A stretch of 32,000 nt of DNA from Polyangiales bacterium (GTDB taxonomy: Bacteria > Myxococcota_A > Polyangia > Polyangiales > Polyangiaceae), in assembly GCA_038210445.1 (NCBI GenBank), contig JBBQWQ010000078.1, positions 59 to 32,058 on the forward strand, in the 5' to 3' direction. This document shows, in pieces, positions 6,688 to 15,412 of the stretch; the stretch's first letter is position 1; each line of letters begins with the position of its first letter. Both the position numbers and the translations under genes were made by a program. The notes beneath the pieces are model-generated. The model saw only the letters and a program-made list of their open reading frames with translations. It did not search any database and had not been told where the DNA came from.

Positions 6688-7326
6688 CTACCGCTCAGCG
6701 CACGATTTCTTGTCGAATCCGGGCAGGTCGCGCCGATTGGTGCAAATCCAATCGAAAATAAAGCTCGTGTGCTCTTCTTGAATGCCCGCCGGAGATGTAA
6801 TGTCGAGTTCCCAGGTAGTCGGATGGCTGCCGACAGCTATGGATGCCACCACGTTGCCTGCGAGGGGACCGTCCTTGACTAGATACCAGCGGAGGTAAAC
6901 TCTATCGCCGCGCGGGTCATCGAAACGGTCATCGGCCAAGTATTCGAGCTCGCCGAGACCAGACCGTGTCGCGGAGTGGCACGACTCGTAGCACACCAGG
7001 CTCCACGCCTTGGGTCTCGCCCGATACTTGGTGAGCATGACGCCATGACAGTCGGAGAACGCGTAGTCGAAAGTCGGCTGCGGACCTCTTCGACGCCCCG
7101 GATCTTTGGATGGCTCAGGAGTCTCGGCGAGTGGGTTTTCCACCAACCGAGCGAGTCGCACCGGGTCGACCGTGGGGCAGTCCGGCACCTCGAGCGAACC
7201 TGTGTCCGCGGCGGACATGGTCGCGCCCGAATCGGTTCTGGCTCGGGTCGGACGCTTGCATTGCGTGTTGGAGCCGAGCACGAGAATCGCACAAGCAAAG
7301 CAGGCGGCGCGCCCGATGGAGTCCAT
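6688..7326 (-). CDS. secreted Cys-containing hypothetical protein (C-terminal domain paralogous to 10329..11348)
   Basis: ATG at 7326 is preceded by GGGAGAGG. N-terminal signal-like MDSIGRAACFACAILVLGSNTQC. The C-terminal ~125 aa align with the C-terminus of the lipoprotein at 10329..11348 (GLGEL, VKDGxLAGNxV, W(I/L)CxNRxLPG(F/Y)D..CA). Confidence 0.6.
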   Translation of the reverse strand: MDSIGRAACFACAILVLGSNTQCKRPTRARTDSGATMSAADTGSLEVPDCPTVDPVRLARLVENPLAETPEPSKDPGRRRGPQPTFDYAFSDCHGVMLTKYRARPKAWSLVCYESCHSATRSGLGELEYLADDRFDDPRGDRVYLRWYLVKDGPLAGNVVASIAVGSHPTTWELDITSPAGIQEEHTSFIFDWICTNRRDLPGFDKKSCAER

Positions 7327-7525: not shown

Positions 7526-7551
7526 CGCGACAATCGCGCGCGATTGTCGCG
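7526..7551. repeat. perfect 26-bp palindrome CGCGACAATCGCG|CGCGATTGTCGCG
   Basis: Read directly from the sequence: the 13-nt arms are exact reverse complements with no spacer. It lies in the non-coding stretch upstream of rbfA. Confidence 0.9.
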
Positions 7552-7903
7552 ACGAAGGCCGAGTCCGTGACGACGGCGGCGATCACGCGCCGCGCTTCCA
7601 CATCGCCCGCGCGCGGCACGAGGCTGCGGCGTTCTCCTCCGAACGCGCCTTGACAATTTGTGGGTAGCGGTCACATTGCTTCGGCGCACGATCGCCGTGC
7701 CGCAGAACGGAGGTGGATCATGTGCCCTATTGCAAACGACGGTTTCCGGTCTGCCTCTCGCGACGCATCGTGAACGCCTGACGCACGCCCTCGCAACCGC
7801 GAGGCGACGCGATGGCTCGCTCTGCACGCGGGAGGTTTTCTCTCGTGTGATTTCGCGCGAGGCGTGAGCAGAGCTCGCGGCCGCGCGCGCGGAGCCGTCG
7901 AAA

Positions 7904-8224
7904 ATGAAGCAGGATATGAGTCGCCTCGTTCGCCTCGAGGTGGTGCTGCGTGACGAGTTGGTGGGAATTTTGAAAGACGATGTCCACGATCCCCGCGTTC
8001 GCGAGGTTCGGATCGTGGCGCTCACGCTGTCGGTGGACTACCGGCATGCGCGGGTTCACTTCACGTTGAAAGGAGACGATCCCAAGGAGGTCCAGGCGGC
8101 GCTCGCGCGCGCCGCACCCTTCGTACGTTCGCTATTGTCACAGGGCACCCCGCTCAAGCGCACGCCGGAGCTGCGCTTTCTCTTCGCGGGTCACCGCAGC
8201 GAGGAGGAGCCACGTTCCGAGTGA
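7904..8224 (+). CDS. rbfA: ribosome-binding factor A (30S maturation factor)
   Basis: 106 aa. Matches the RbfA pattern: R..R.E..L...L......DPR, V.(I)V.L.LS.DYRHARVHF, and L.RA.PF.RS.L...L.L.RTPELRF. Confidence 0.8.
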   Translation: MKQDMSRLVRLEVVLRDELVGILKDDVHDPRVREVRIVALTLSVDYRHARVHFTLKGDDPKEVQAALARAAPFVRSLLSQGTPLKRTPELRFLFAGHRSEEEPRSE

Positions 8225-9390
8225 TCGCCAGCGCGGCAGAAGGCCGGGGCATTCCCATCCGCAGCTGGGCCGAGGATCTCGACAACGAGACTTTGGCGCA
8301 GCTGAGGCGCATCGCCCGGGCGCCCTATGTTCGGCACTTCGTATGCGCAATGGCCGACGCGCACCTCTCGGAGCACGTCGCCGTGGGGAGCGTGTTCGCT
8401 GCCGAACGCACCGTGGTGCCGTCGGCGCTCGGCGGTGATCTCGGGTGCGGCATGCTGGCGGTGCCGCTGGAGGACGCTTCCGGGGCCGCTCTCGATACGA
8501 GCGGTCTCGGTCCGGCCGAACGAAGGAGGCTCCTCGAGCGCTGGCTCGCGAGCATCCCGGTGGGCAAAGGGCTCCGCCGCGGGCGCGCCCTCCCCTTCGC
8601 GCCGGAGCCGGAAGCGTCGCAGGGCCTCTTCGAGCGCAACCTCTCTACCCGGAGCCTGGAGAAAGCCCGGAAAGCGCTGGTGGCAAAGCACATCGGCACA
8701 CTGGGCGGCGGCAACCACTTCGTGGAGCTCGGGTGCGACCCCGAGCAGCGCGCGTGGCTCTTGGTGCACTCCGGCTCTCGCGGCCTCGGCGCCGCCATCG
8801 CCGACCACCACCGGGGCGCGGAAGGTGCGCCGCTCGCGGGCCTCTCCACCCGCACCGAGAAAGGAAGTGCCTACCTGGCCGACCTCACCTGGGCACTGGA
8901 TTTCGCCCGCGCGAATCGCATGCATATTGCACGTGTTGCTGCGCGCGCCCTGGAAGAGGTGGTGGGCCATCCGCTGGTCCACGGCCCGCCGGTCGACGTG
9001 CACCACAACTTCGTGGCCGAGGAGGTCTGGTTCGGCGAGCGCCTCTTCGTACACCGCAAGGGCGCCATCGCTGCACCTGCGGGGGGCTTGGCACTGGTGC
9101 CAGGCTCCATGGCGACCGCCAGCTACCTGGTGGCGGGCCTCGGCTGCGAAGCGGCGTTCGGCTCGTGCTCACACGGAGCCGGGCGCGTTCTTCGGCGCAG
9201 CGAGGCGCGGCGAAAAATTCGCCCGGAGGCGCTCCGCCGCGCGCTCGGCGACGTGGTGATTCCAGACGGCGACGCGATGGTCGAAGAGGCGCCCGCGGCC
9301 TACCGCGACATCCGGAAGGTGCTGGAGGCACAGGAGGATCTGGTGGAGCGACGGCTCCGCCTCGAGCCACTGGTTGTTCTGAAAGGGTGA
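8221..9390 (+). CDS. rtcB: RNA 3'-phosphate/2',3'-cyclic-phosphate ligase RtcB
   Basis: 389 aa. RtcB blocks present: MADAHLS, GGDLGCGM, GTLGGGNHFVEL, HSGSRGLG, HHNF, HRKGA, PGSM, CSHGAGR and a C-terminal VVLKG. The GTG start overlaps the rbfA stop (GTGA). Confidence 0.92.
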   Translation: MIASAAEGRGIPIRSWAEDLDNETLAQLRRIARAPYVRHFVCAMADAHLSEHVAVGSVFAAERTVVPSALGGDLGCGMLAVPLEDASGAALDTSGLGPAERRRLLERWLASIPVGKGLRRGRALPFAPEPEASQGLFERNLSTRSLEKARKALVAKHIGTLGGGNHFVELGCDPEQRAWLLVHSGSRGLGAAIADHHRGAEGAPLAGLSTRTEKGSAYLADLTWALDFARANRMHIARVAARALEEVVGHPLVHGPPVDVHHNFVAEEVWFGERLFVHRKGAIAAPAGGLALVPGSMATASYLVAGLGCEAAFGSCSHGAGRVLRRSEARRKIRPEALRRALGDVVIPDGDAMVEEAPAAYRDIRKVLEAQEDLVERRLRLEPLVVLKG

Positions 9391-9423
9391 ATGCGAGCGC
9401 GGGGGCGTGCATCCCAATGCGAA

Positions 9424-10335
9424 ATGCGCGCCCCTCGCTTCCTGCTGGCCATCCCCCTTGTCGCGTGCGCTCTCGCGTCGGGCCTCGCGTGCGGTCACGC
9501 ACCTTCCGGCGCTGCGGAGACGTCGGGCGCCGCCGCCATCGGCCGAACCACCTTCGGCCCCATGCCGGCGCCCGATCGCATCGAAGCCAACCGGCACGGC
9601 GCCGAGATGCTGAAAACTGCGGGGTTTCGCGGAACCTTCGTGCTCTTCGACGGCGAGACCCGACGCTGGTCCGCCACCGACGCGCACCTCGCCGGCGAAC
9701 GCTACCTGCCGGCCTCCACCTTCAAGATTCCGAACGCGCTCATCGCCCTGCAGACCGGGGTGGCCACCGGCGAAGACTTCCTGCTTCGCTGGGACGGAAA
9801 GCCGCGTGGCCGGCCGGAGTGGGACCGCGACCACACGCTGGCCTCCGCCATGGAGGTCTCGGCGGTGTGGTACTTTCAGGAGATAGCGCGGCGGGTCGGG
9901 GAGGCCCGCATGCGTTCGTTCGTCACCGCGTTCGACTACGGCAACGGCGACGTGAGCGGCGAGGTCGACCACTTCTGGCTCCGCGGCAACCTGGGCGTGT
10001 CTGCGCTGGAGCAGGTGAACTTTCTTGGGCGAATGAAGGCGGGGGAGCTGCCGGTGGAGCGCGCCCACGTGGCCACGGTGGAGAAGATTACGACGCTCGC
10101 CTCGGGCAAGGACAAGACCGGCCCCTGGACCCTGCGCGGCAAGACCGGCATGCACGAGGACGCCGCCAACGCCCACGGGTGGCTCGTGGGCAGCGTCGAG
10201 CGCGCCGGTCGCACGCACATTTACGCGCTGCTTTTGGTGGGTCGCATCGAGGAGAGCGCGCGCATCATGGGCGCGCGAAAAGACCTGACGCGGGCTCTGC
10301 TCGACGACGCCCAGGTGCTCCCCGCCGCCTACTGA
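9424..10335 (+). CDS. class D (OXA-type) beta-lactamase, predicted lipoprotein
   Basis: Motifs S-T-F-K (PASTFKIPN), S-x-V (SAVWYFQ), Y-G-N (FDYGNGD) and K-T-G (RGKTGMH) occur in the right order and spacing. Signal/lipobox LVACALASGLAC. An alternative ATG at 9391 lies 1 nt after the rtcB stop. Confidence 0.85.
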   Translation: MRAPRFLLAIPLVACALASGLACGHAPSGAAETSGAAAIGRTTFGPMPAPDRIEANRHGAEMLKTAGFRGTFVLFDGETRRWSATDAHLAGERYLPASTFKIPNALIALQTGVATGEDFLLRWDGKPRGRPEWDRDHTLASAMEVSAVWYFQEIARRVGEARMRSFVTAFDYGNGDVSGEVDHFWLRGNLGVSALEQVNFLGRMKAGELPVERAHVATVEKITTLASGKDKTGPWTLRGKTGMHEDAANAHGWLVGSVERAGRTHIYALLLVGRIEESARIMGARKDLTRALLDDAQVLPAAY

Positions 10336-11348
10336 ACGGGCGCGCGCGTACTCGCGCTGGCCTTCGCGGTGGGCGCAGCCCCGGCGGTACTCGCACACTT
10401 GGTGCGATCGTAGCCCGGTAGCGATCGGTTCTCGCAAAGCCAGGGGTCGATCTCCGCGAGCTTCTCGCTCTGCACCCAGGCGAGCGATGCCACCTGCCAG
10501 AAGCCGGGCGTGATCTCCACGAAGTTTCCGGCGAGCGCGCCGTCCTTCACCTCGAACCACCGGTGCTCCTCTTCGCTACCCGCGGCGCTGGTCACCTGCG
10601 TCGTAAAAAGTGGGTCGAGCTCCCCCAGGCCAACCTTCTTCCAGCGCCCCTTCCACGACTCGCAACGAAACGACGCGGCCCCCTTGGCCTTGGCGGTCTC
10701 CACCACCGCGTGCGGACAGAAGGAAACGTCGACCGAGGTAGCGACGACTCCGCGCGCGGACGGGCGCGCCACCTTGCCCGCGTCGCCGCCCGCGCCGAGG
10801 CCCGCGCCAGAGAGCAGCCCGGCGATGCGCTTGGGGTCGGCGACGAACGGCTTGTCGTCGATGCCGTCGCCCACGATAGCGATGCGCGCGGCGCCGAGCC
10901 GCGTGGTGGTGCGGGTGACCTTGCCGGAGCCGATGTCGTCGTTCTCGGCGATGTCCACGTCGAAGATCTCGAGCTCCAGATCCTCGAGCGCCAGCGGAAG
11001 ATTCGTGAAGGTGCAGTGATACGCGTCGCGGCACTTGGGAACGCGTACGTCATCCATGGACGACCCCGACGGGAAGCACTGCGTCTCGCCGTCGCTGGTC
11101 GCGCAGAGGGCGATGTCGGGCGGCCCACTCCCCACGTCCCAGGGCCGGCCGTCCTTCTTCTTGCGGTCCACGTCCACGCGCACCGAGAGGGTGCCTGGCT
11201 TGGCGGTCAGGTCTGGGTCCGTCGTCGCGACGCCGTCGCCGTCGGGCGAGTCGGTTCGCGATTGCTTCGTGCGCTTGCCGCAGCCGCCCAAAACGGCGAG
11301 GACGAGCGGAAGCGCAAAAGCGAGGCGGAGGCTGGGGCAATGCGTCAT
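10329..11348 (-). CDS. lipoprotein, hypothetical; C-terminal 4-Cys domain paralogous to 6688..7326
   Basis: Lipobox LAVLGGC after MTHCPSLRLAFALPLV. The middle region has an acidic DVDIAENDDIGSG stretch. The C-terminal domain shares GLGEL, VKDGALAGNFV and WLCENRSLPGYDRTKCA with the 6688..7326 product. Confidence 0.75.
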   Translation of the reverse strand: MTHCPSLRLAFALPLVLAVLGGCGKRTKQSRTDSPDGDGVATTDPDLTAKPGTLSVRVDVDRKKKDGRPWDVGSGPPDIALCATSDGETQCFPSGSSMDDVRVPKCRDAYHCTFTNLPLALEDLELEIFDVDIAENDDIGSGKVTRTTTRLGAARIAIVGDGIDDKPFVADPKRIAGLLSGAGLGAGGDAGKVARPSARGVVATSVDVSFCPHAVVETAKAKGAASFRCESWKGRWKKVGLGELDPLFTTQVTSAAGSEEEHRWFEVKDGALAGNFVEITPGFWQVASLAWVQSEKLAEIDPWLCENRSLPGYDRTKCASTAGAAPTAKASASTRAPVQ

Positions 11349-11398
11349 TCGTGGGTTCCTCGAGGGGCGTACGCGAGCGCGAAAGAGGGGGCGGCCGT

Positions 11399-14300
11399 AT
11401 GCTACGCTCGAAAGTTGGGCCTCTTCCCTGCCCTGCGCGCGGTCGCGACTCCCTCCACGCGTTCACCCGCGTGCGCGTCGTCTACGAGAGCGCATACTTC
11501 GTGGTCCGAGCAGACGGCGACTGCGTCCTCGTCGAACGCACCGGTCGCGCCGACGCCTTCGACAGCGAGCTCGAGGCCGACGTCTTCATGCGCAGCCGCG
11601 CCGGAGCGCTCGCACAAAGCGGGCCTGATTTCCTTGGCGCAGGTGCGCGCTTCCGCTACGGAAGAGACGTGAGCGAACTCCACGCAGCCTTTCAGGACGC
11701 GTTGCGCGGAGTGCTTCGCGAGATGCCGGCGCCCGAGCTCACCCGCGGCCGCCGCTACGCCGCCGAAGGACGCGTCCGCATTGCCAGCTACCGCGACGGG
11801 CTGATGCGGGCGACCGTGCGCGGCTCGGCCCCGTACCAGGTGGTGCTCCACCTCTTCGGCAAGACCGTGCGCGATCAATGCGAGTGCGAGGCCTGGCACC
11901 GCGAAGGGCTCTGCAAGCATGTGGTGGCGGCGGCCACGGTGTTCCTCGAAGACGACGCCCACGCAGAGAGCGCCGAACCGGCGGGGGCGCAGAGCAAGCT
12001 GCGCTTCGAGCACGCAGCGGCCTTCGACGTGGTCGCCCGCCTGGAGCTTTACTGCGGACGCGCGCTCCCGGCGGCCGCGCCCGGCATGACGTTCGGTCAG
12101 TGGCAGCGCAACGTTGTGGCCTTGCGCCAGGAGACGCGGGCGCTGGTCGCGGCGGTGCTCGAACGGTATCTGCCGGAAGTGGAGGCTTCTCGCCGCGCCC
12201 TCATCGAGCAAACGTTCGAAGGGAGCGAGCCGCTCCTGAAGTCACTGGGTGAGGCCTATGCGTTCGCCGCAACGTCGTTGGCGCGCCACGCCATGCCGCT
12301 GCCGGACGACGCACGCTTCGGCGGATGGGAGCATGCCTTCGATGCAGCCACCGGCACCCTCACGGTTTCTCCCCGGCTGGCGCGGCGATCGCTGCCGGCA
12401 CTTCGCATCACCGTTTCGCCGGACCCCGATGCGCCGTCTCCTGTCGTTCACTGGACCCAGCCCCACGCGGTGGATGCCGCCGAGCTCGGCGCATTGCGAG
12501 CGCTGCTGCGCACGCTGGGCGATGCGAGCGCGCCGCTCACCGCCGAGCTCGCCCGGCATCTGGCGCGCGCCCGCTGGGAGCACCTGCTCGATCGCGTGAC
12601 CGGCAAGCCCGTGGCGCCGCAGAGCGTGGCGGAGCTGGGTTTCGTCGTCATCCCCGTGGGCCGGAGCGCGCGGGTCTCGCTGGTGGTGCGAAGCGGGCGT
12701 GGAAAAGCCGCGCGATGGCGCGCCATCCGGCTCTCGGCGCTCCTCGACGGCAGTGTCTCGGCCTCGGCGCTCGAGCGCGAGATCGGCGGCTTCGTGGTGT
12801 CGCAGGCGGCGCGCGGCAACGAGGTCTACGTCGACTTGGGGTCCCCGCTGGGGTTCGCCACACTGGAGCGAATTGCCCAACATCCTCGGGTATTCGGCGA
12901 CAGCGAAGGCACCACCACCCTGCGCATCGTCACCGGCAACGTCACGCTCGAGCTCGCCCACACGGTGAACACCATGGCCCGGGCGCGCTTCGTGGTTGCG
13001 GGCCACGCGGTGCCCATGGAGGCGCTCGACCCTTTGGCGCGATCGCAGAGCGCGCACCTGGCGTTCGCGGTGGGTGACGTGCTGGTTGCCGGCCAGCTCG
13101 CCTCGGGTCTGCGCCCGTGGGTCAAAACCGCCTTGGACCTGGGCCCCACCGCGCTCGAATTCCCCGACGCGGCGCTGCCTCGATTGCGGGCCGCGCTGCT
13201 CCCGTTGGTGCCGGGTGGGCACGCGCGCATTCCTTCGTCGGTGCTGGGCACCGAGATCGCCGCGCAGCCGCGGGCGGCGCTGGCCATCGACTGGGCCCCC
13301 ACCACCAGCGTCGAGCTCATGGTCGAGATCGCCCCCGGCGCGCCCCTGCTCCGCGCGGGCGAGGGCCCTCCGCTCCTGACTTTCACCCGCGACGGCGTGG
13401 CGCTGTTTGTGAAGCGGGCCATGGCGCAAGAGGCAGCCTGCCTCGCGCCGCTGCGCGCGGGGCTGGGCGCGTGGGTGGAGTGGGACGAAGCCACCGGCGG
13501 CGCCACCGGCACCACCTTGGGCCTGGAGGCGACGCTGGCGCTCCTCGACTTCGCCGACGCCAACCCGCTCGAGATTCGCATCGAGATGCGAAGCGGAATG
13601 CGCCCTGCCACTGTGAAGTGGGAGCGCGCCGAAGCGCAGCTCTCGGTCGATCGCTCGCAGCAGTGGTTCGCGCTCCGCGCCTCGGTGGGGACGGCGGGCT
13701 CGCGCGCCAAGGTGCCGCTGGGCGACATCCTCCAGGCCATTCGCGACGCGCAGCGCTACGTGCCCATGGGCGATTCGCGATACCTAGAGCTCACCAGCGA
13801 GGTTCGCGACGCGCTCCTGCCCATGGCCTTCGCGGCGGTGGAAGACGAGGGCGCGGGAGGCGACAACGCGCCGATTCGCCTTCACGAGGGCTTCGGTTCG
13901 GCGCTGGTGGCGGCGCGGGCCTACTTCGGTGCGGTGGAGGGCGGCGTCGACATCGACGCCATCGAGGCGCGTTTCGGCAAGCGAAAGCGGGTGCGGAGCC
14001 CGGCCAAGATCGAGCGCGGTGAGCTGCGCGACTACCAGCGCGACGGCGTGGGCTGGATGCAGAGCCTCGCTACCTGGGCGCCCGGCTGCGTGCTGGCCGA
14101 CGACATGGGGCTCGGCAAGACCGTGCAGACTGCAGCGGTTCTTCTCGCGCGGAAGAAGTTGGGACCGGCGCTGGTGGTGGCGCCGGCTTCGGTGTCGTTC
14201 AACTGGAAGGCGGAGCTCTCGCGGTTCGCGCCCAGCCTCCGGGTGCACTGGTTCAACGAAGACCGCGAGCTGGCGATTCCGGAGCTCGGAGCCGGCGACG

Positions 14301-15412
14301 TGGTGGTGGTCTCCTACGGCCTGGTGCAGAAGCGAGCGAAAAGCTTCGCTCGGCAGTGGCCGACCCTGGTGCTCGACGAGGTGCAATACCTGAAAAACCA
14401 CCTGGCCAAGCGCAGCACCGCCATCCGCGACCTATCGCGCGACTTCACCATCGCCCTCAGCGGCACGCCCATGGAAAACCACCTGGGCGAGCTGTGGAGC
14501 GTGGTGAACCTGGTATTTCCAGGCCTCCTGGGCAGCGAGCCGAGCTTTCGCGCGCGCTTCCGCCAGACCATCGAAGGCCACGACAGCGCGCCCTCGCTCG
14601 GTGCCCTAAACCTGCTCTTGCGCCCGTTCTTGCTGCGGCGCACGCGGGCCGAGGTGCTCGCCGAGCTGCCGCCGCGACAGGACATCATCGAGTACGTCGA
14701 CCTCGACCCGGAAGAGACCCGGCGCTACGAAAACTTTCGCCACGCCTGCGACATGCAGTTCTCGAAGAAGGACCGCCGAGTCACCAGCGCCCAGCAGAAG
14801 ATACAGATTCTCGCCGCGCTCACCCGCCTCCGGCAGCTCGCCTGCCACCCGGGGTTGGTCGACGCCTCGTTCACCGGCGAGTCTTCGAAGTTGAAGCGCC
14901 TGCGCACGCTCTGCCTCGAGCTGCGCGAGCAGCGGGCCGCCGCCCTGGTGTTCAGCCAGTTCACCACGCTCCTGGGGCGCGCGCGGGCCGACCTCGAGCA
15001 TGCCGGCCTGCGGGTGGGGTATCTGGACGGCGCGACCCCACTGGGGGAGCGGCGGCGGCTGGTCGACGCCTTTCAGGACGGGCAATTCGATGTATTCTGC
15101 ATTTCTCTCACCGCCGGCGGCACTGGCCTGAACCTGACCCGCGCCAGCTACGTGGTGCACCTCGACCCCTGGTGGAACCCCGCGGTAGAGGAGCAGGCCA
15201 ACGCGCGCGCGCACCGCATGGGGCAGGAGCGGGCGGTCACCGCCTACCGCATCGTGGCGCGCGGGACCATCGAGGAGGGCATTCTTTCGCTCCACGCGCG
15301 CAAGCGCGATCTGGTCGCCTCGGTGCTCGACGGAAAGTCTGCCACCACCCCACTGGCGCCGGAAGAGTTGCTCGACCTTCTGCGCTTCCGCGAGACGCTG
15401 GGCGGCTCATGA
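11399..15412 (+). CDS. SWIM zinc finger / SNF2-family helicase (DEAD-like N plus helicase C)
   Basis: SWIM CxCx(n)CxH in CECEAWHREGLCKHV. SNF2 motifs LADDMGLGKTVQ (I), DEVQYLKN (II), LSGTPMENHL (III), and C-terminal TAGGTGLNLT and QANARAHRMGQ. ATG at 11399 is preceded by AGAGGGGG, and third-position GC bias is already present from about 11440. Confidence 0.85.
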   Translation: MLRSKVGPLPCPARGRDSLHAFTRVRVVYESAYFVVRADGDCVLVERTGRADAFDSELEADVFMRSRAGALAQSGPDFLGAGARFRYGRDVSELHAAFQDALRGVLREMPAPELTRGRRYAAEGRVRIASYRDGLMRATVRGSAPYQVVLHLFGKTVRDQCECEAWHREGLCKHVVAAATVFLEDDAHAESAEPAGAQSKLRFEHAAAFDVVARLELYCGRALPAAAPGMTFGQWQRNVVALRQETRALVAAVLERYLPEVEASRRALIEQTFEGSEPLLKSLGEAYAFAATSLARHAMPLPDDARFGGWEHAFDAATGTLTVSPRLARRSLPALRITVSPDPDAPSPVVHWTQPHAVDAAELGALRALLRTLGDASAPLTAELARHLARARWEHLLDRVTGKPVAPQSVAELGFVVIPVGRSARVSLVVRSGRGKAARWRAIRLSALLDGSVSASALEREIGGFVVSQAARGNEVYVDLGSPLGFATLERIAQHPRVFGDSEGTTTLRIVTGNVTLELAHTVNTMARARFVVAGHAVPMEALDPLARSQSAHLAFAVGDVLVAGQLASGLRPWVKTALDLGPTALEFPDAALPRLRAALLPLVPGGHARIPSSVLGTEIAAQPRAALAIDWAPTTSVELMVEIAPGAPLLRAGEGPPLLTFTRDGVALFVKRAMAQEAACLAPLRAGLGAWVEWDEATGGATGTTLGLEATLALLDFADANPLEIRIEMRSGMRPATVKWERAEAQLSVDRSQQWFALRASVGTAGSRAKVPLGDILQAIRDAQRYVPMGDSRYLELTSEVRDALLPMAFAAVEDEGAGGDNAPIRLHEGFGSALVAARAYFGAVEGGVDIDAIEARFGKRKRVRSPAKIERGELRDYQRDGVGWMQSLATWAPGCVLADDMGLGKTVQTAAVLLARKKLGPALVVAPASVSFNWKAELSRFAPSLRVHWFNEDRELAIPELGAGDVVVVSYGLVQKRAKSFARQWPTLVLDEVQYLKNHLAKRSTAIRDLSRDFTIALSGTPMENHLGELWSVVNLVFPGLLGSEPSFRARFRQTIEGHDSAPSLGALNLLLRPFLLRRTRAEVLAELPPRQDIIEYVDLDPEETRRYENFRHACDMQFSKKDRRVTSAQQKIQILAALTRLRQLACHPGLVDASFTGESSKLKRLRTLCLELREQRAAALVFSQFTTLLGRARADLEHAGLRVGYLDGATPLGERRRLVDAFQDGQFDVFCISLTAGGTGLNLTRASYVVHLDPWWNPAVEEQANARAHRMGQERAVTAYRIVARGTIEEGILSLHARKRDLVASVLDGKSATTPLAPEELLDLLRFRETLGGS

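Follow-up and report, generated by a model that had tools for sequence, protein, structure and literature searches.

A conserved rbfA-like/rtcB gene pair behind a predicted leader peptide in Polyangiales: a candidate stall-induced repair module for the 30S subunit

Why does a gene of the RbfA family, whose canonical members lie in a rimP-nusA-infB-rbfA operon, stand directly before the gene of an RtcB-type RNA ligase? The question is raised by contig JBBQWQ010000078.1 of the Polyangiales bacterium GCA_038210445.1, a soil myxobacterium, from which a stretch of 32,000 nt (the window) was analysed. It had been claimed in an earlier note on this DNA that the rbfA-like gene stops within the GTG start codon of rtcB. 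This is borne out by the ORF list and the sequence, in which the TGA at 8222-8224 overlaps the GTG at 8221-8223. The features of the locus are collected in Table 1.

Table 1. Annotated and predicted features of the rbfA-like/rtcB locus (window coordinates)
Feature	Position	Strand	Remarks
-35 element TTGACA, predicted operon promoter	7650..7655	+	position of TTGAC[AC] conserved
-10-like hexamer CACATT (TCAnnT in relatives)	7672..7677	+	16 nt past the -35 element
SD1, GGAGGUG, predicted ribosome-binding site of the leader ORF	7709..7715	+	invariant columns in the 11-sequence leader alignment
Leader ORF MCPIANDGFRSASRDAS, 17 codons and stop	7720..7773	+	SD-led ORF conserved
Helix A, 5' arm, CGACGGUUUC	7737..7746	+	leader codons 6-9; paired with 7891-7900 by RNAalifold
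Helix B, 5' arm, CCUCUCG	7754..7760	+	leader codons 12-14; predicted to pair with 7856-7862
Internal spacer hairpin CACGCGGGAG-GUUUU-CUCUCGUGUG	7825..7849	+	in the minimum-free-energy and centroid folds
Helix B, 3' arm, CGCGAGG	7856..7862	+	'GCGGAG-CGUGA' box of relatives; block GCGGAGCGTGA conserved
Helix A, 3' arm = SD2, GGAGCCGUCG, predicted ribosome-binding site of the rbfA-like gene	7891..7900	+	GGAGCC invariant
rbfA-like gene	7904..8224	+	106 aa; divergent RbfA paralogue without C-terminal tail; PF02033 match
rtcB	8221..9390	+	389 aa; predicted RNA 3'-phosphate/5'-OH ligase; PF01139 match
OXA-like class D beta-lactamase gene, probable lipoprotein	9424..10335	+	genus-specific neighbour, outside the module

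The check for a second, canonical rbfA that the note had proposed gave a positive answer. Such a gene, scoring 94 bits on the Pfam profile, follows rimP-nusA-infB on contig C67 (operon at C67:18095-24397), and the copy in the window is therefore an extra, specialised paralogue. Neither rtcA nor rtcR occurs within the window, in agreement with the note. The genome-wide absence that it implied is wrong, since both genes are found on contig C25 in a canonical rtcR/rtcB-rtcA locus with another of the four RtcB paralogues of this genome.

The rbfA-like product matches Pfam PF02033 (RBFA) with 59.6 bits (cut-off 34.7) over profile positions 2-91 of 105, and with 47.2 bits it stays under the cut-off of 51.15 of the NCBIfam equivalog TIGR00082. 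Its profile matches RbfA from the PDB at E=4e-20. According to the AF2 model (pLDDT 90.2; elements H2-25, E36-42, E48-55, H60-81 and E89-97), the protein is predicted to have the KH-type alpha1-beta1-beta2-alpha2-beta3 fold of the RbfA family, and Foldseek ranks 1-23 for this model are all RbfA, several of them 30S-bound. Canonical RbfA (PDB 1JOS, 1KKG, 7AFL, 8BYV; PMC8177701, PMC8201178) shows the same KH-like fold (TM about 0.7-0.78) and shares with the RbfA-like protein the motifs DP, A-x-[GP]-F-[LI]-R and P-x-L-x-F. Unlike it, the RbfA-like protein has no C-terminal tail (about 25 aa in canonical RbfA) and possesses a signature of its own, LSVDYRHARVHF and RATPFLRARLA. The canonical clade of the RbfA tree has a support of 100/100 with every paralogue outside it, and the paralogue of the window belongs to a clade of its own that stands on a long branch. 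The missing C-terminal tail counts against a ribosome-repair function.

The rtcB product matches Pfam PF01139 with 262.9 bits over profile positions 1-426. In an alignment with 2EPG and 1UC2, its segments GGDLGCGM, GGGNHF, HSGSRGLG, VHHN, PGSMA and SHGAGR coincide with the motifs of these proteins. The catalytic motifs, with the metal-binding Asp/Cys/His and the GMP-accepting His in H-G-A-G-R, are thus intact; the roles given to these residues follow the P. horikoshii enzyme. The RtcBs linked to rbfA-like genes form a clade with a support of 100/99, distinct from the rtcR-rtcBA copy of the same genome. Against TIGR03073 (release_rtcB, RtcB2) the RtcB of the window scores 144.4 bits, which is below the cut-off of 271.8, and the other linked RtcBs score 136-157 bits; the NCBIfam models do not separate the RtcB clades.

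The distribution of the pair was surveyed with the RbfA-like paralogue itself and RtcB as queries in place of Pfam RBFA; the best 150 matches listed in a Pfam RBFA search across the order are all canonical. More than 30 Sorangiineae/Polyangiales genomes of several families have the rbfA-like and rtcB genes side by side, and in most of these the two share the 4-nt overlap. In a 200-genome sample of the order, every one of the 19 informative orthologues of RtcB (identity of 48% or higher) has an RbfA-like gene directly 5' of it, an arrangement far beyond chance. From the side of the small gene, rtcB follows directly 3' on the same strand in 20 of the 24 informative RbfA-like loci, and the 4-nt stop/start overlap is possible in 20/24 loci. 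Two further, more divergent classes of RbfA-like genes likewise precede RtcBs. The survey of co-occurrence suggested in the note has thus revealed an adjacency conserved across several families of the order, and the two genes appear from their sequences to be a conserved, translationally coupled pair. Both conditions under which the note would have counted its idea as refuted are contradicted by these results. With the canonical rbfA elsewhere in the genome and the adjacency kept across families, a dedicated two-gene module is well supported.

A word-based protein search with the 106-aa RbfA-like protein gave 12 matches. The search for related loci that started from a 7-sequence alignment used the single peptide pattern LS[VP]DYRHAR and is hence a partial survey; its three matches beyond Myxococcota were rejected as canonical rbfA genes adjoining infB. 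Only canonical rbfA genes were found in the plasmid collection searched. No published account of the rbfA-like/rtcB unit was found, though Burroughs and Aravind 2016 and Maughan and Shuman 2015 might list the neighbourhood, and the unit with its leader is apparently undescribed so far.

The region 5' of the pair contains a short ORF led by a Shine-Dalgarno sequence. Such an ORF of 16-27 codons occurs in 30 of the 31 informative linked loci compared with 2 of the 25 unlinked or canonical rbfA loci, and it is also seen in the divergent tier 3, P. rubella and L. luteola. A promoter is predicted from the sequence TTGAC[AC], which in most linked loci precedes the start of the leader ORF by 64-72 nt, and the hexamer at the -10-like position is TCAGAT, CACATT, TCACCT or TCATCT in the relatives. 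The CACATT of the window fails the generic TATAAT scan. Since the generic promoter/terminator scan returned neither a sigma70 consensus nor any terminator-like site that was more than weak, transcription attenuation is not claimed here. The sigma54 promoter pattern was searched across the window and none was found.

In the RNAalifold consensus structure, SD2 is sequestered by helix A, and a GGAG box is likewise paired with the leader ORF. Compensatory changes are found in 3 of the 10 pairs of this helix, and in 6 of 10 in a 21-sequence alignment. In helix B, the pairs that are C-G, U-A and G-C in the group of the window are U-A, C-G and U-A in other loci. Altogether 7 and 13 pairs of the consensus helices show compensatory changes, the cells are paired in 91% and 88% as compared with 36-50% with slid partners, and the covariation score was reached in 2/500 and 0/500 shuffles; the structure was obtained from these very sequences or fitted to them, and the sequences are related, so that the shuffle counts are not probabilities. 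The single-sequence leader fold is no stabler than shuffles (z = -1.22), and the part of the spacer around the internal hairpin differs between subgroups. With the leader covariance model, the 8.5-Mb genome yields a single site (E=8e-29), and further sites of the model lie only 5' of RbfA-like genes. The leader ORF is accordingly predicted by covariation to pair with the Shine-Dalgarno sequence of the rbfA-like gene.

In the translational attenuation leaders of cat-86, cmlA and ermC, a ribosome stalled on the leader frees the downstream ribosome-binding site; leaders of this kind have reportedly been treated by Lovett and Rogers in 1996. The leader of the rbfA-like gene likewise has a short SD-led ORF and a segment that is predicted to base-pair with the downstream ribosome-binding site. 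Its predicted layout is that of translational attenuation of the cat/erm type, and it looks built to respond to ribosome stalling. Unlike in the known leaders, some 140 nt separate its two arms, an interval that contains a second helix and variable hairpins, and no motif for nascent-peptide arrest was recognised in it. The cat-86, cmlA and ermC leaders control resistance genes, whereas this one precedes a putative repair operon. The promoter, the leader peptide ORF, the structured spacer, the rbfA-like gene and rtcB may together constitute a self-contained, lineage-specific RNA-repair operon of Sorangiineae/Polyangiales, for which we consider the chances to be even.

As to its function, the unit might, in analogy to RtcB2-PrfH, be a repair module for the 16S rRNA of the 30S subunit that is induced by stalling; we would expect this proposal to prove right about half the time. 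Repair of the 30S subunit is made more plausible by the RbfA fold, the intact RtcB motifs, the stalling-responsive look of the leader and the precedent of RtcB2-PrfH (PMC9304027). In unstressed cells, segments of the leader ORF would pair with the GGAG box and SD2 and so hold the translation of rbfA-like and rtcB low. Ribosomes stalled on the leader ORF, owing to a damaged decoding centre or 16S 3' end, to cleaved tRNAs or to translation inhibitors, would keep the helices open and SD2 exposed. The RbfA-like protein would then be translated, and RtcB after it by coupling. The former would bind the 30S subunit at the canonical RbfA site (neck and mRNA exit channel, with the 16S 3' end held) and present the broken 16S rRNA to the dedicated RtcB, which would reseal the 2',3'-cyclic phosphate (or 3'-phosphate) and 5'-OH ends. 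The whole unit would be a PrfH-independent counterpart of RtcB2-PrfH ribosome repair. That all parts act as one complete sense-and-repair circuit, in which the leader ORF gauges stalling, the RbfA-like protein docks on the damaged 30S and keeps hold of the severed 16S 3' fragment, and a private RtcB reseals this fragment, is a more tentative proposal, which we hold at somewhat less than an even chance.

The RtcB2-PrfH system repairs 30S subunits cut by colicin E3: the 16S rRNA is cut between A1493 and G1494 in the 30S subunit, and RtcB2 acts on the free 30S subunit (PMC9304027), to which RbfA too binds. Both RtcB2-PrfH (E. coli ATCC 25922; PMC9304027, PMC9223846, PMC13166195) and rbfA-like/rtcB are two-gene operons in which a compact RtcB is accompanied by a small protein that descends from a translation factor binding the ribosome. 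By analogy, the partner would be expected to recognise the region of the small-subunit decoding or 3' minor domain in both cases. The partners themselves are different, being a release-factor homologue with a GGQ domain in one system and an RbfA-type KH protein in the other, so that peptide release and 70S splitting are not supplied here. No prfH adjoins the present rtcB, the gene 5' of it being rbfA-like, and PrfH (TIGR03072) gave no match above the cut-off in the whole genome. The RtcB of the unit also differs from RtcB2 in lying under the TIGR03073 cut-off and in another clade, and the unit has a predicted leader peptide attenuator, which RtcB2-PrfH does not. The unit encodes no factor for splitting stalled 70S ribosomes, which is the role of PrfH, and this counts against the reading as ribosome repair.

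The RtcR-regulated rtcBA operon (E. coli, Salmonella; PMC7790460, PMC5175333) resembles the unit in having RtcB as the effector and in being, like it, probably induced by damage to the translation apparatus. However, the locus has no RtcA, RtcR/sigma54 promoter, Rsr or Y RNA, and RtcR/sigma54 control would be replaced by the predicted cis-acting leader ORF. A link of RtcB to the 16S 3' terminal segment is given by E. coli RtcB, which religates the MazF-cut 16S 3' end (PMC5416887); the same piece is held by the KH domain of RbfA (PMC8177701). The general RtcB of E. coli does so without a dedicated partner, whereas here RtcB has an RbfA-like partner gene.

The substrate of this RtcB could also be tRNA or mRNA. 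The RbfA-like protein might be a general RNA-binding cofactor or chaperone of RtcB, similar to archease, and the pair might mend, in place of the ribosome, tRNAs or other small RNAs that anticodon nucleases or toxin RNases have cleaved, with the leader sensing stalls that arise from a lack of intact tRNA. For most bacterial RtcBs, tRNA is the presumed substrate, and RtcB1 of E. coli mends tRNA but not 30S (PMC9304027). KH-type domains generally bind single-stranded RNA, and leader codons 6-7 are rich in Asn/Asp/His/Gln, which could be 'hungry codons' after tRNA cleavage; these Asn/Asp codons, however, overlap helix A, so the RNA pairing may account for their conservation. The partner is an RbfA homologue over the whole core, its best structural matches being 30S-bound RbfAs and not generic KH proteins. 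Archease-RtcB pairs (PMC10630183) likewise have a small accessory protein encoded beside RtcB, but archease, a protein of unrelated fold, works on the guanylylation cycle of RtcB, a role which nothing suggests for the RbfA-like protein. In this genus an accessory tRNA array lies 14 kb from the unit, yet the block of this array and Rsr is unlinked to the unit beyond the genus, and the linkage was rejected as a part of the system. The proposal of the note that rsr/Y RNAs and rtcB are halves of a split operon fails on the same point, as Rsr is near only within the genus and is 6.8 Mb away in G188. We regard repair of tRNAs or small RNAs as an unlikely account of the pair.

A still less likely explanation is that the two are co-regulated stress proteins with separate jobs, the RbfA-like protein barring immature or damaged 30S subunits from translation and RtcB repairing RNA independently, so that the operon shares merely a stall-sensing leader. 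It draws on the fact that canonical RbfA blocks translation by immature 30S subunits until IF3 releases it (PMC7145577), and on solo RbfA-like genes. Copies without an adjoining RtcB are found at L010, L011, L030, L031, L038, L044 and a subset of L060-L078; L031/L060 retains the leader without rtcB, and in at least three genomes with a solo copy no RtcB was found at E<=1e-50. The small RbfA-like protein can therefore function apart from RtcB. Within this RtcB clade, however, the small gene is never absent, and the stop/start overlap is kept across deep divergence. Three divergent classes of RbfA-like proteins each have an RtcB clade of their own, which suggests co-evolution of partners (physical or in a pathway) beyond co-regulation. 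The solo copies without RtcB also count against the reading as 30S repair.

The OXA-like gene that follows rtcB raises the possibility that three genes form one functional operon tying RNA repair to beta-lactam resistance or cell-wall stress. Its product scores 214.2 bits against bla_class_D_main (cut-off 250), with STFK, SAV, YGN and KTG all present. The rtcB stop codon ends at 9390, and there is an ATG at 9391, as the note had stated in placing the OXA start 1 nt past that stop. This start is not conserved, as in the two same-genus genomes a 1-nt deletion shifts it into another frame; what is conserved is the second ATG, at 9424 (MRAPRFLL..., a signal peptide with Cys), so the true spacer between the genes is probably 33 nt. 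The genes share a strand and a short spacer (33 or 1 nt) without a convincing terminator between them, and the arrangement is kept in two same-genus genomes. The tight link supposed in the note does not extend beyond these, for the same-genus loci L054 and L055 are the only ones with an OXA-like gene after rtcB, and none of the more than 30 others has one, P. rubella having an unrelated 155-aa gene in that place. With a secreted or lipoprotein product that has no evident RNA link, the OXA-like gene is, from its distribution, a local neighbour only, and the three-gene operon is very improbable. That an rbfA duplicate and one of the many RtcB paralogues of myxobacteria (four in this genome) lie together by chance and without functional meaning can be practically dismissed, since the conservation of the pair extends across families and is accompanied by translational coupling, clades of its own and a dedicated leader. 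An SNF2 helicase was rejected as a conserved neighbour, since this genome and P. rubella are the only ones in which it lies close to the unit.

If the reading as a complete sense-and-repair circuit is true, the unit would be a second, PrfH-independent ribosome repair system, RtcB2-PrfH being, to our knowledge, the sole dedicated one characterised, and the first repair operon under a ribosome-sensing leader peptide. The leader ORF suggests that in bacteria the stalling of ribosomes may itself be the cue that switches on repair of the translation machinery, a logic that has so far been described chiefly for antibiotic-resistance genes. Of the eight RtcB sequence clusters, five were noted to lack a known substrate (PMC9304027). 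An RtcB clade that is always accompanied by a paralogue of a 30S-binding assembly factor provides a concrete hypothesis for one further cluster, namely that an assembly factor was co-opted to serve as the subunit that targets an RNA ligase. Experiments are feasible, since the full unit is present in two cultured soil myxobacteria that are non-pathogenic, Pendulispora rubella (CP089983) and Labilithrix luteola DSM 27648 (CP012333).

Comparison of loci across the order shows the rbfA-like gene and rtcB to be a dedicated, translationally coupled pair, preceded by a private leader whose ORF is predicted to be able to sequester the downstream Shine-Dalgarno sequence. In the window, with a G+C content of 68%, the TGA of the rbfA-like gene (8222-8224) overlaps the GTG of rtcB. 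ORF calls and profile matches bear out this overlap and the OXA-like gene behind it, both described in the earlier note. The OXA-like gene had been thought to start 1 nt after rtcB. The first in-frame ATG does stand there, but it is not conserved in the two same-genus genomes, where a 1-base deletion puts it out of frame. Since the conserved start is a later ATG, the spacer between rtcB and the OXA-like gene is probably about 33 nt. The OXA-like translation shows STFK, SAV, YGN and KTG.

Features of the unit in the window, and the canonical RNA-repair locus of the same genome
Feature	Position	Strand	Remarks
-35 box TTGACA	7650-7655		putative promoter
-10-like CACATT	7672-7677		putative promoter
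Shine-Dalgarno GGAGGUG of leader ORF	7709-7715		invariant
Leader ORF	7720-7773		17 codons, MCPIANDGFRSASRDAS
Helix A (predicted)	7737-7746 with 7891-7900		leader codons 6-9 with the rbfA-like ribosome-binding site (GGAGCCGUCG)
Helix B (predicted)	7754-7760 with 7856-7862		leader codons 12-14 with the conserved GCGGAG box
rbfA-like gene	7904-8224	+	106 aa; Pfam RBFA 59.6 bits (cut-off 34.7)
rtcB	GTG start 8221-8223, stop end 9390	+	389 aa; full-length RtcB match, 262.9 bits
OXA-like gene	conserved start ATG 9424	+	bla_class_D_main 214 bits (cut-off 250)
Canonical RNA-repair locus (L003)	G000 C25:9731-15035		RtcR-like sigma54-type activator (635 aa, minus strand), then rtcB (411 aa) and rtcA (340 aa)

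A profile of the RbfA-like proteins matches solved RbfA structures across the whole core (1JOS, E=4e-20). In the AlphaFold2 model of the window's protein (pLDDT 90.2), the secondary-structure elements follow the alpha-beta-beta-alpha-beta order of RbfA, and the best 23 PDB matches of the model are all RbfA, 30S-bound forms among them. With the NCBI equivalog model of housekeeping RbfA, the protein scores 47.2 bits, just below the cut-off of 51.15. Unlike canonical RbfA, it lacks the C-terminal tail of about 25 residues and shows motifs of its own, LSVDYRHARVHF and RATPFLRARLA. A strongly basic extension at the N terminus, e.g., MGKKHSRGRGAGHDRTDADLFFGES, is found in many RbfA-like proteins (loci L094, L095, L098, L100 and L101, also L037, L040, L041 and L045-L050) and is missing from the window's protein. 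The RtcB keeps the motifs GCGM, GGGNHF, HSGSRG, HHN and SHGAGR; these we take to hold the metal-binding residues and the histidine that accepts GMP, the roles being those of the P. horikoshii enzyme. Compared with the PrfH-associated RtcB2, the RtcBs linked to RbfA-like genes fall below the cut-off of the RtcB2 model. A profile search of the whole genome found no PrfH.

A second, canonical rbfA (94 bits), whose presence the earlier note had advised checking, lies on contig C67 of the genome directly 3' of rimP-nusA-infB. The absence of rtcA and rtcR holds for the window but not for the genome, since a classical rtcR / rtcB-rtcA locus is found on contig C25, with rtcB and rtcA 4 nt apart. The genome has four RtcB paralogues; two long ones (503 and 537 aa, on C1 and C14) are without obvious partners. 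Searches with the 106-aa protein covered 40 relatives and 200 genomes sampled from the order, and a third search scanned 185,579 species genomes for a peptide motif; combined, they gave more than 45 non-canonical RbfA-like loci. According to tblastn and ORF tracing, rtcB directly follows the RbfA-like gene in the same orientation at 20 of the 24 informative loci of the order sample, and a start codon is positioned for the 4-nt stop/start overlap in 20/24. All RtcB matches of at least 48% identity in this sample (n=20) adjoin an RbfA-like gene except that of genome G198, which is split across two contig ends. Because a canonical copy exists and the pair is conserved, the case of a sole rbfA beside rtcB by chance, which had been named as counting against the pair, does not apply.

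The orthologues and their RbfA-like upstream genes were restricted to this order among 300 genomes sampled from the phylum, and the names of matching proteins in a large database (Labilithrix, Pendulispora, Polyangiaceae, Polyangiales) agree with it. The three non-myxobacterial matches of the motif scan were rejected as paralogues, being ordinary rbfA adjoining infB. The complete unit is present in two cultured strains: Pendulispora rubella CP089983, where the RBFA gene (110 aa) and RtcB overlap by 4 nt, and Labilithrix luteola CP012333 (near 8.578 Mb), where the GTGA junction recurs. At one locus (G132:C13:34112-34897; L028 / L063 / L104), an intact leader and RbfA-like gene precede a broken rtcB with one in-frame TAG and without residues ~281-332. 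Two genomes have an additional gene of about 229 aa, without a Pfam match (MSTKNLARTVIEGGRAGYNKFERRH...), which separates the RbfA-like gene from rtcB and at its end overlaps the rtcB start (L019:1816-2502, and L052, where ~720 nt separate the two genes).

Two more divergent RbfA-like classes stand directly upstream of RtcBs of ~40% identity: a divergent one (L017/L019/L047/L052) and the most divergent one (L094/L095/L098/L100/L101, HMM E ~1e-10). The signature of the latter is RKDxQLCxQV ... IHRKRxPxLxF. No RbfA-like gene was found upstream of rtcBA-type RtcBs or of the 388-aa stand-alone RtcBs (L082-L090, L096, L097, L099). These stand-alone proteins are very conserved with short branches, are spread over at least seven of the order's families and have heterogeneous neighbours. 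Linked RtcBs group together in the RtcB tree as one clade (support 100/99). Its sister clade (90/75) holds the RtcBs linked to the most divergent RbfA-likes, and the rtcBA copy of the window's genome lies apart from it. In the RbfA tree, a long branch leads to the canonical proteins as a 100/100 clade, and every paralogue falls outside it. Solo RbfA-like paralogues, i.e., those without adjacent rtcB, are scattered among the linked ones, a pattern suggesting that rtcB was lost or relocated several times and that the solo copies are not a family of their own. Their neighbours are unrelated (Usp, OmpA/DUF4398, porin, amidohydrolase, MarR). A strictly obligate partnership of the RbfA-like protein and RtcB is disfavoured, since several genomes with solo copies gave no RtcB match at E<=1e-50.

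Of the 31 informative linked loci, 30 have an ORF of 16-27 codons, led by a Shine-Dalgarno sequence, at 160-350 nt before the RbfA-like start, versus 2/25 solo or canonical loci. The most divergent RbfA-like class likewise has a leader ORF. One of the two exceptions is a real leader before a solo copy (L031 / L060; G180:C26:91496-91801), complete at E=1e-6 with the covariance model and encoding MSTLVMSDLSVPSPHRA; there, a 107-aa ORF and a convergent amidohydrolase stand in place of rtcB. RNAalifold predicted two long-range helices from 11 leaders. In this alignment, 91% of cells were paired versus 39-50% for slid partners, with seven pairs changed on both sides. For 21 sequences, in an alignment fitted to the model, the values were 88% versus 36-49% and 13 pairs, and the covariation score was 0.27 versus 0.146, reached by none of 500 shuffles. 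Both sets of counts use a structure derived from the same sequences, which are related to one another. The single-sequence leader fold is no more stable than shuffles (z = -1.22). With the leader covariance model, the 8.5-Mb genome has a single site (E=8e-29), and sites elsewhere stand solely before RbfA-like genes, among them that of L. luteola (E=8e-19) and that of P. rubella (E=9e-9). A weak match in the window (27168-27276, +, 17.8 bits, E=0.007), overlapping the start of a GYF-domain ORF (27196-27867), is probably due to chance.

In attenuation of the cat/cmlA/erm type, a ribosome stalled in the leader holds a helix open and the downstream genes are on. The window's leader has the same layout. 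The promoter/terminator scan gave no convincing intrinsic terminator, and translational rather than transcriptional attenuation is therefore proposed. Ribosome stalling in the leader ORF would keep the helix open and switch on the rbfA-like gene and rtcB, supplying a protein of the 30S-binding type and an RNA ligase. RtcB2 with PrfH reseals the A1493/G1494 cut of 16S rRNA in free 30S subunits (PMC9304027), and a MazF-cut 3' end is religated by RtcB (PMC5416887). Given the attenuator layout, these two products and the known 16S resealing by RtcB, the simplest interpretation is that stalling induces a module which repairs the 3' minor domain of 16S rRNA and in which the RbfA-like protein is the targeting or holding subunit; we consider the chances of this to be about even. 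The main rival, in which the pair repairs tRNA or other RNAs with the RbfA-like protein as a cofactor, appears unlikely. The next rival, by which the two are independent stress proteins that are merely co-regulated, seems more doubtful still. Full-text literature searches of partial reach returned no paper linking RbfA and RtcB; five of the eight RtcB clusters are still unassigned according to the RtcB2-PrfH authors (PMC9304027).

Neither the OXA-like gene nor the convergent lipoprotein gene was accepted as a module member, their place behind rtcB being limited to the genus: they follow rtcB only in the two same-genus genomes, and the other loci have unrelated genes there. The idea of a split rsr-rtcB operon found no support either, because Rsr with its tRNA array lies 17 kb away in a same-genus genome and 6.8 Mb away in G188, and is absent from two others. 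An SNF2-family helicase gene adjoins the unit divergently in P. rubella (L117:1-2504) and lies 2 kb downstream in the window (11351-15412), the similarity being confined to the helicase core (41%); none was seen near the unit at the other loci compared. Secreted-protein genes at 6688-7326 (-) and 10329-11348 (-) flank the rbfA-like/rtcB/OXA block and have a common C-terminal domain (39% identity over 90 aa, tblastn); at the same-genus locus L054, the 4 kb around the unit lack the upstream copy. The divergent spacer between this upstream gene, which encodes a secreted Cys-protein, and the leader contains a perfect 26-bp palindrome, CGCGACAATCGCGCGCGATTGTCGCG (7526-7551), ~100 nt upstream of the -35 box, which could be an operator or a bidirectional terminator.
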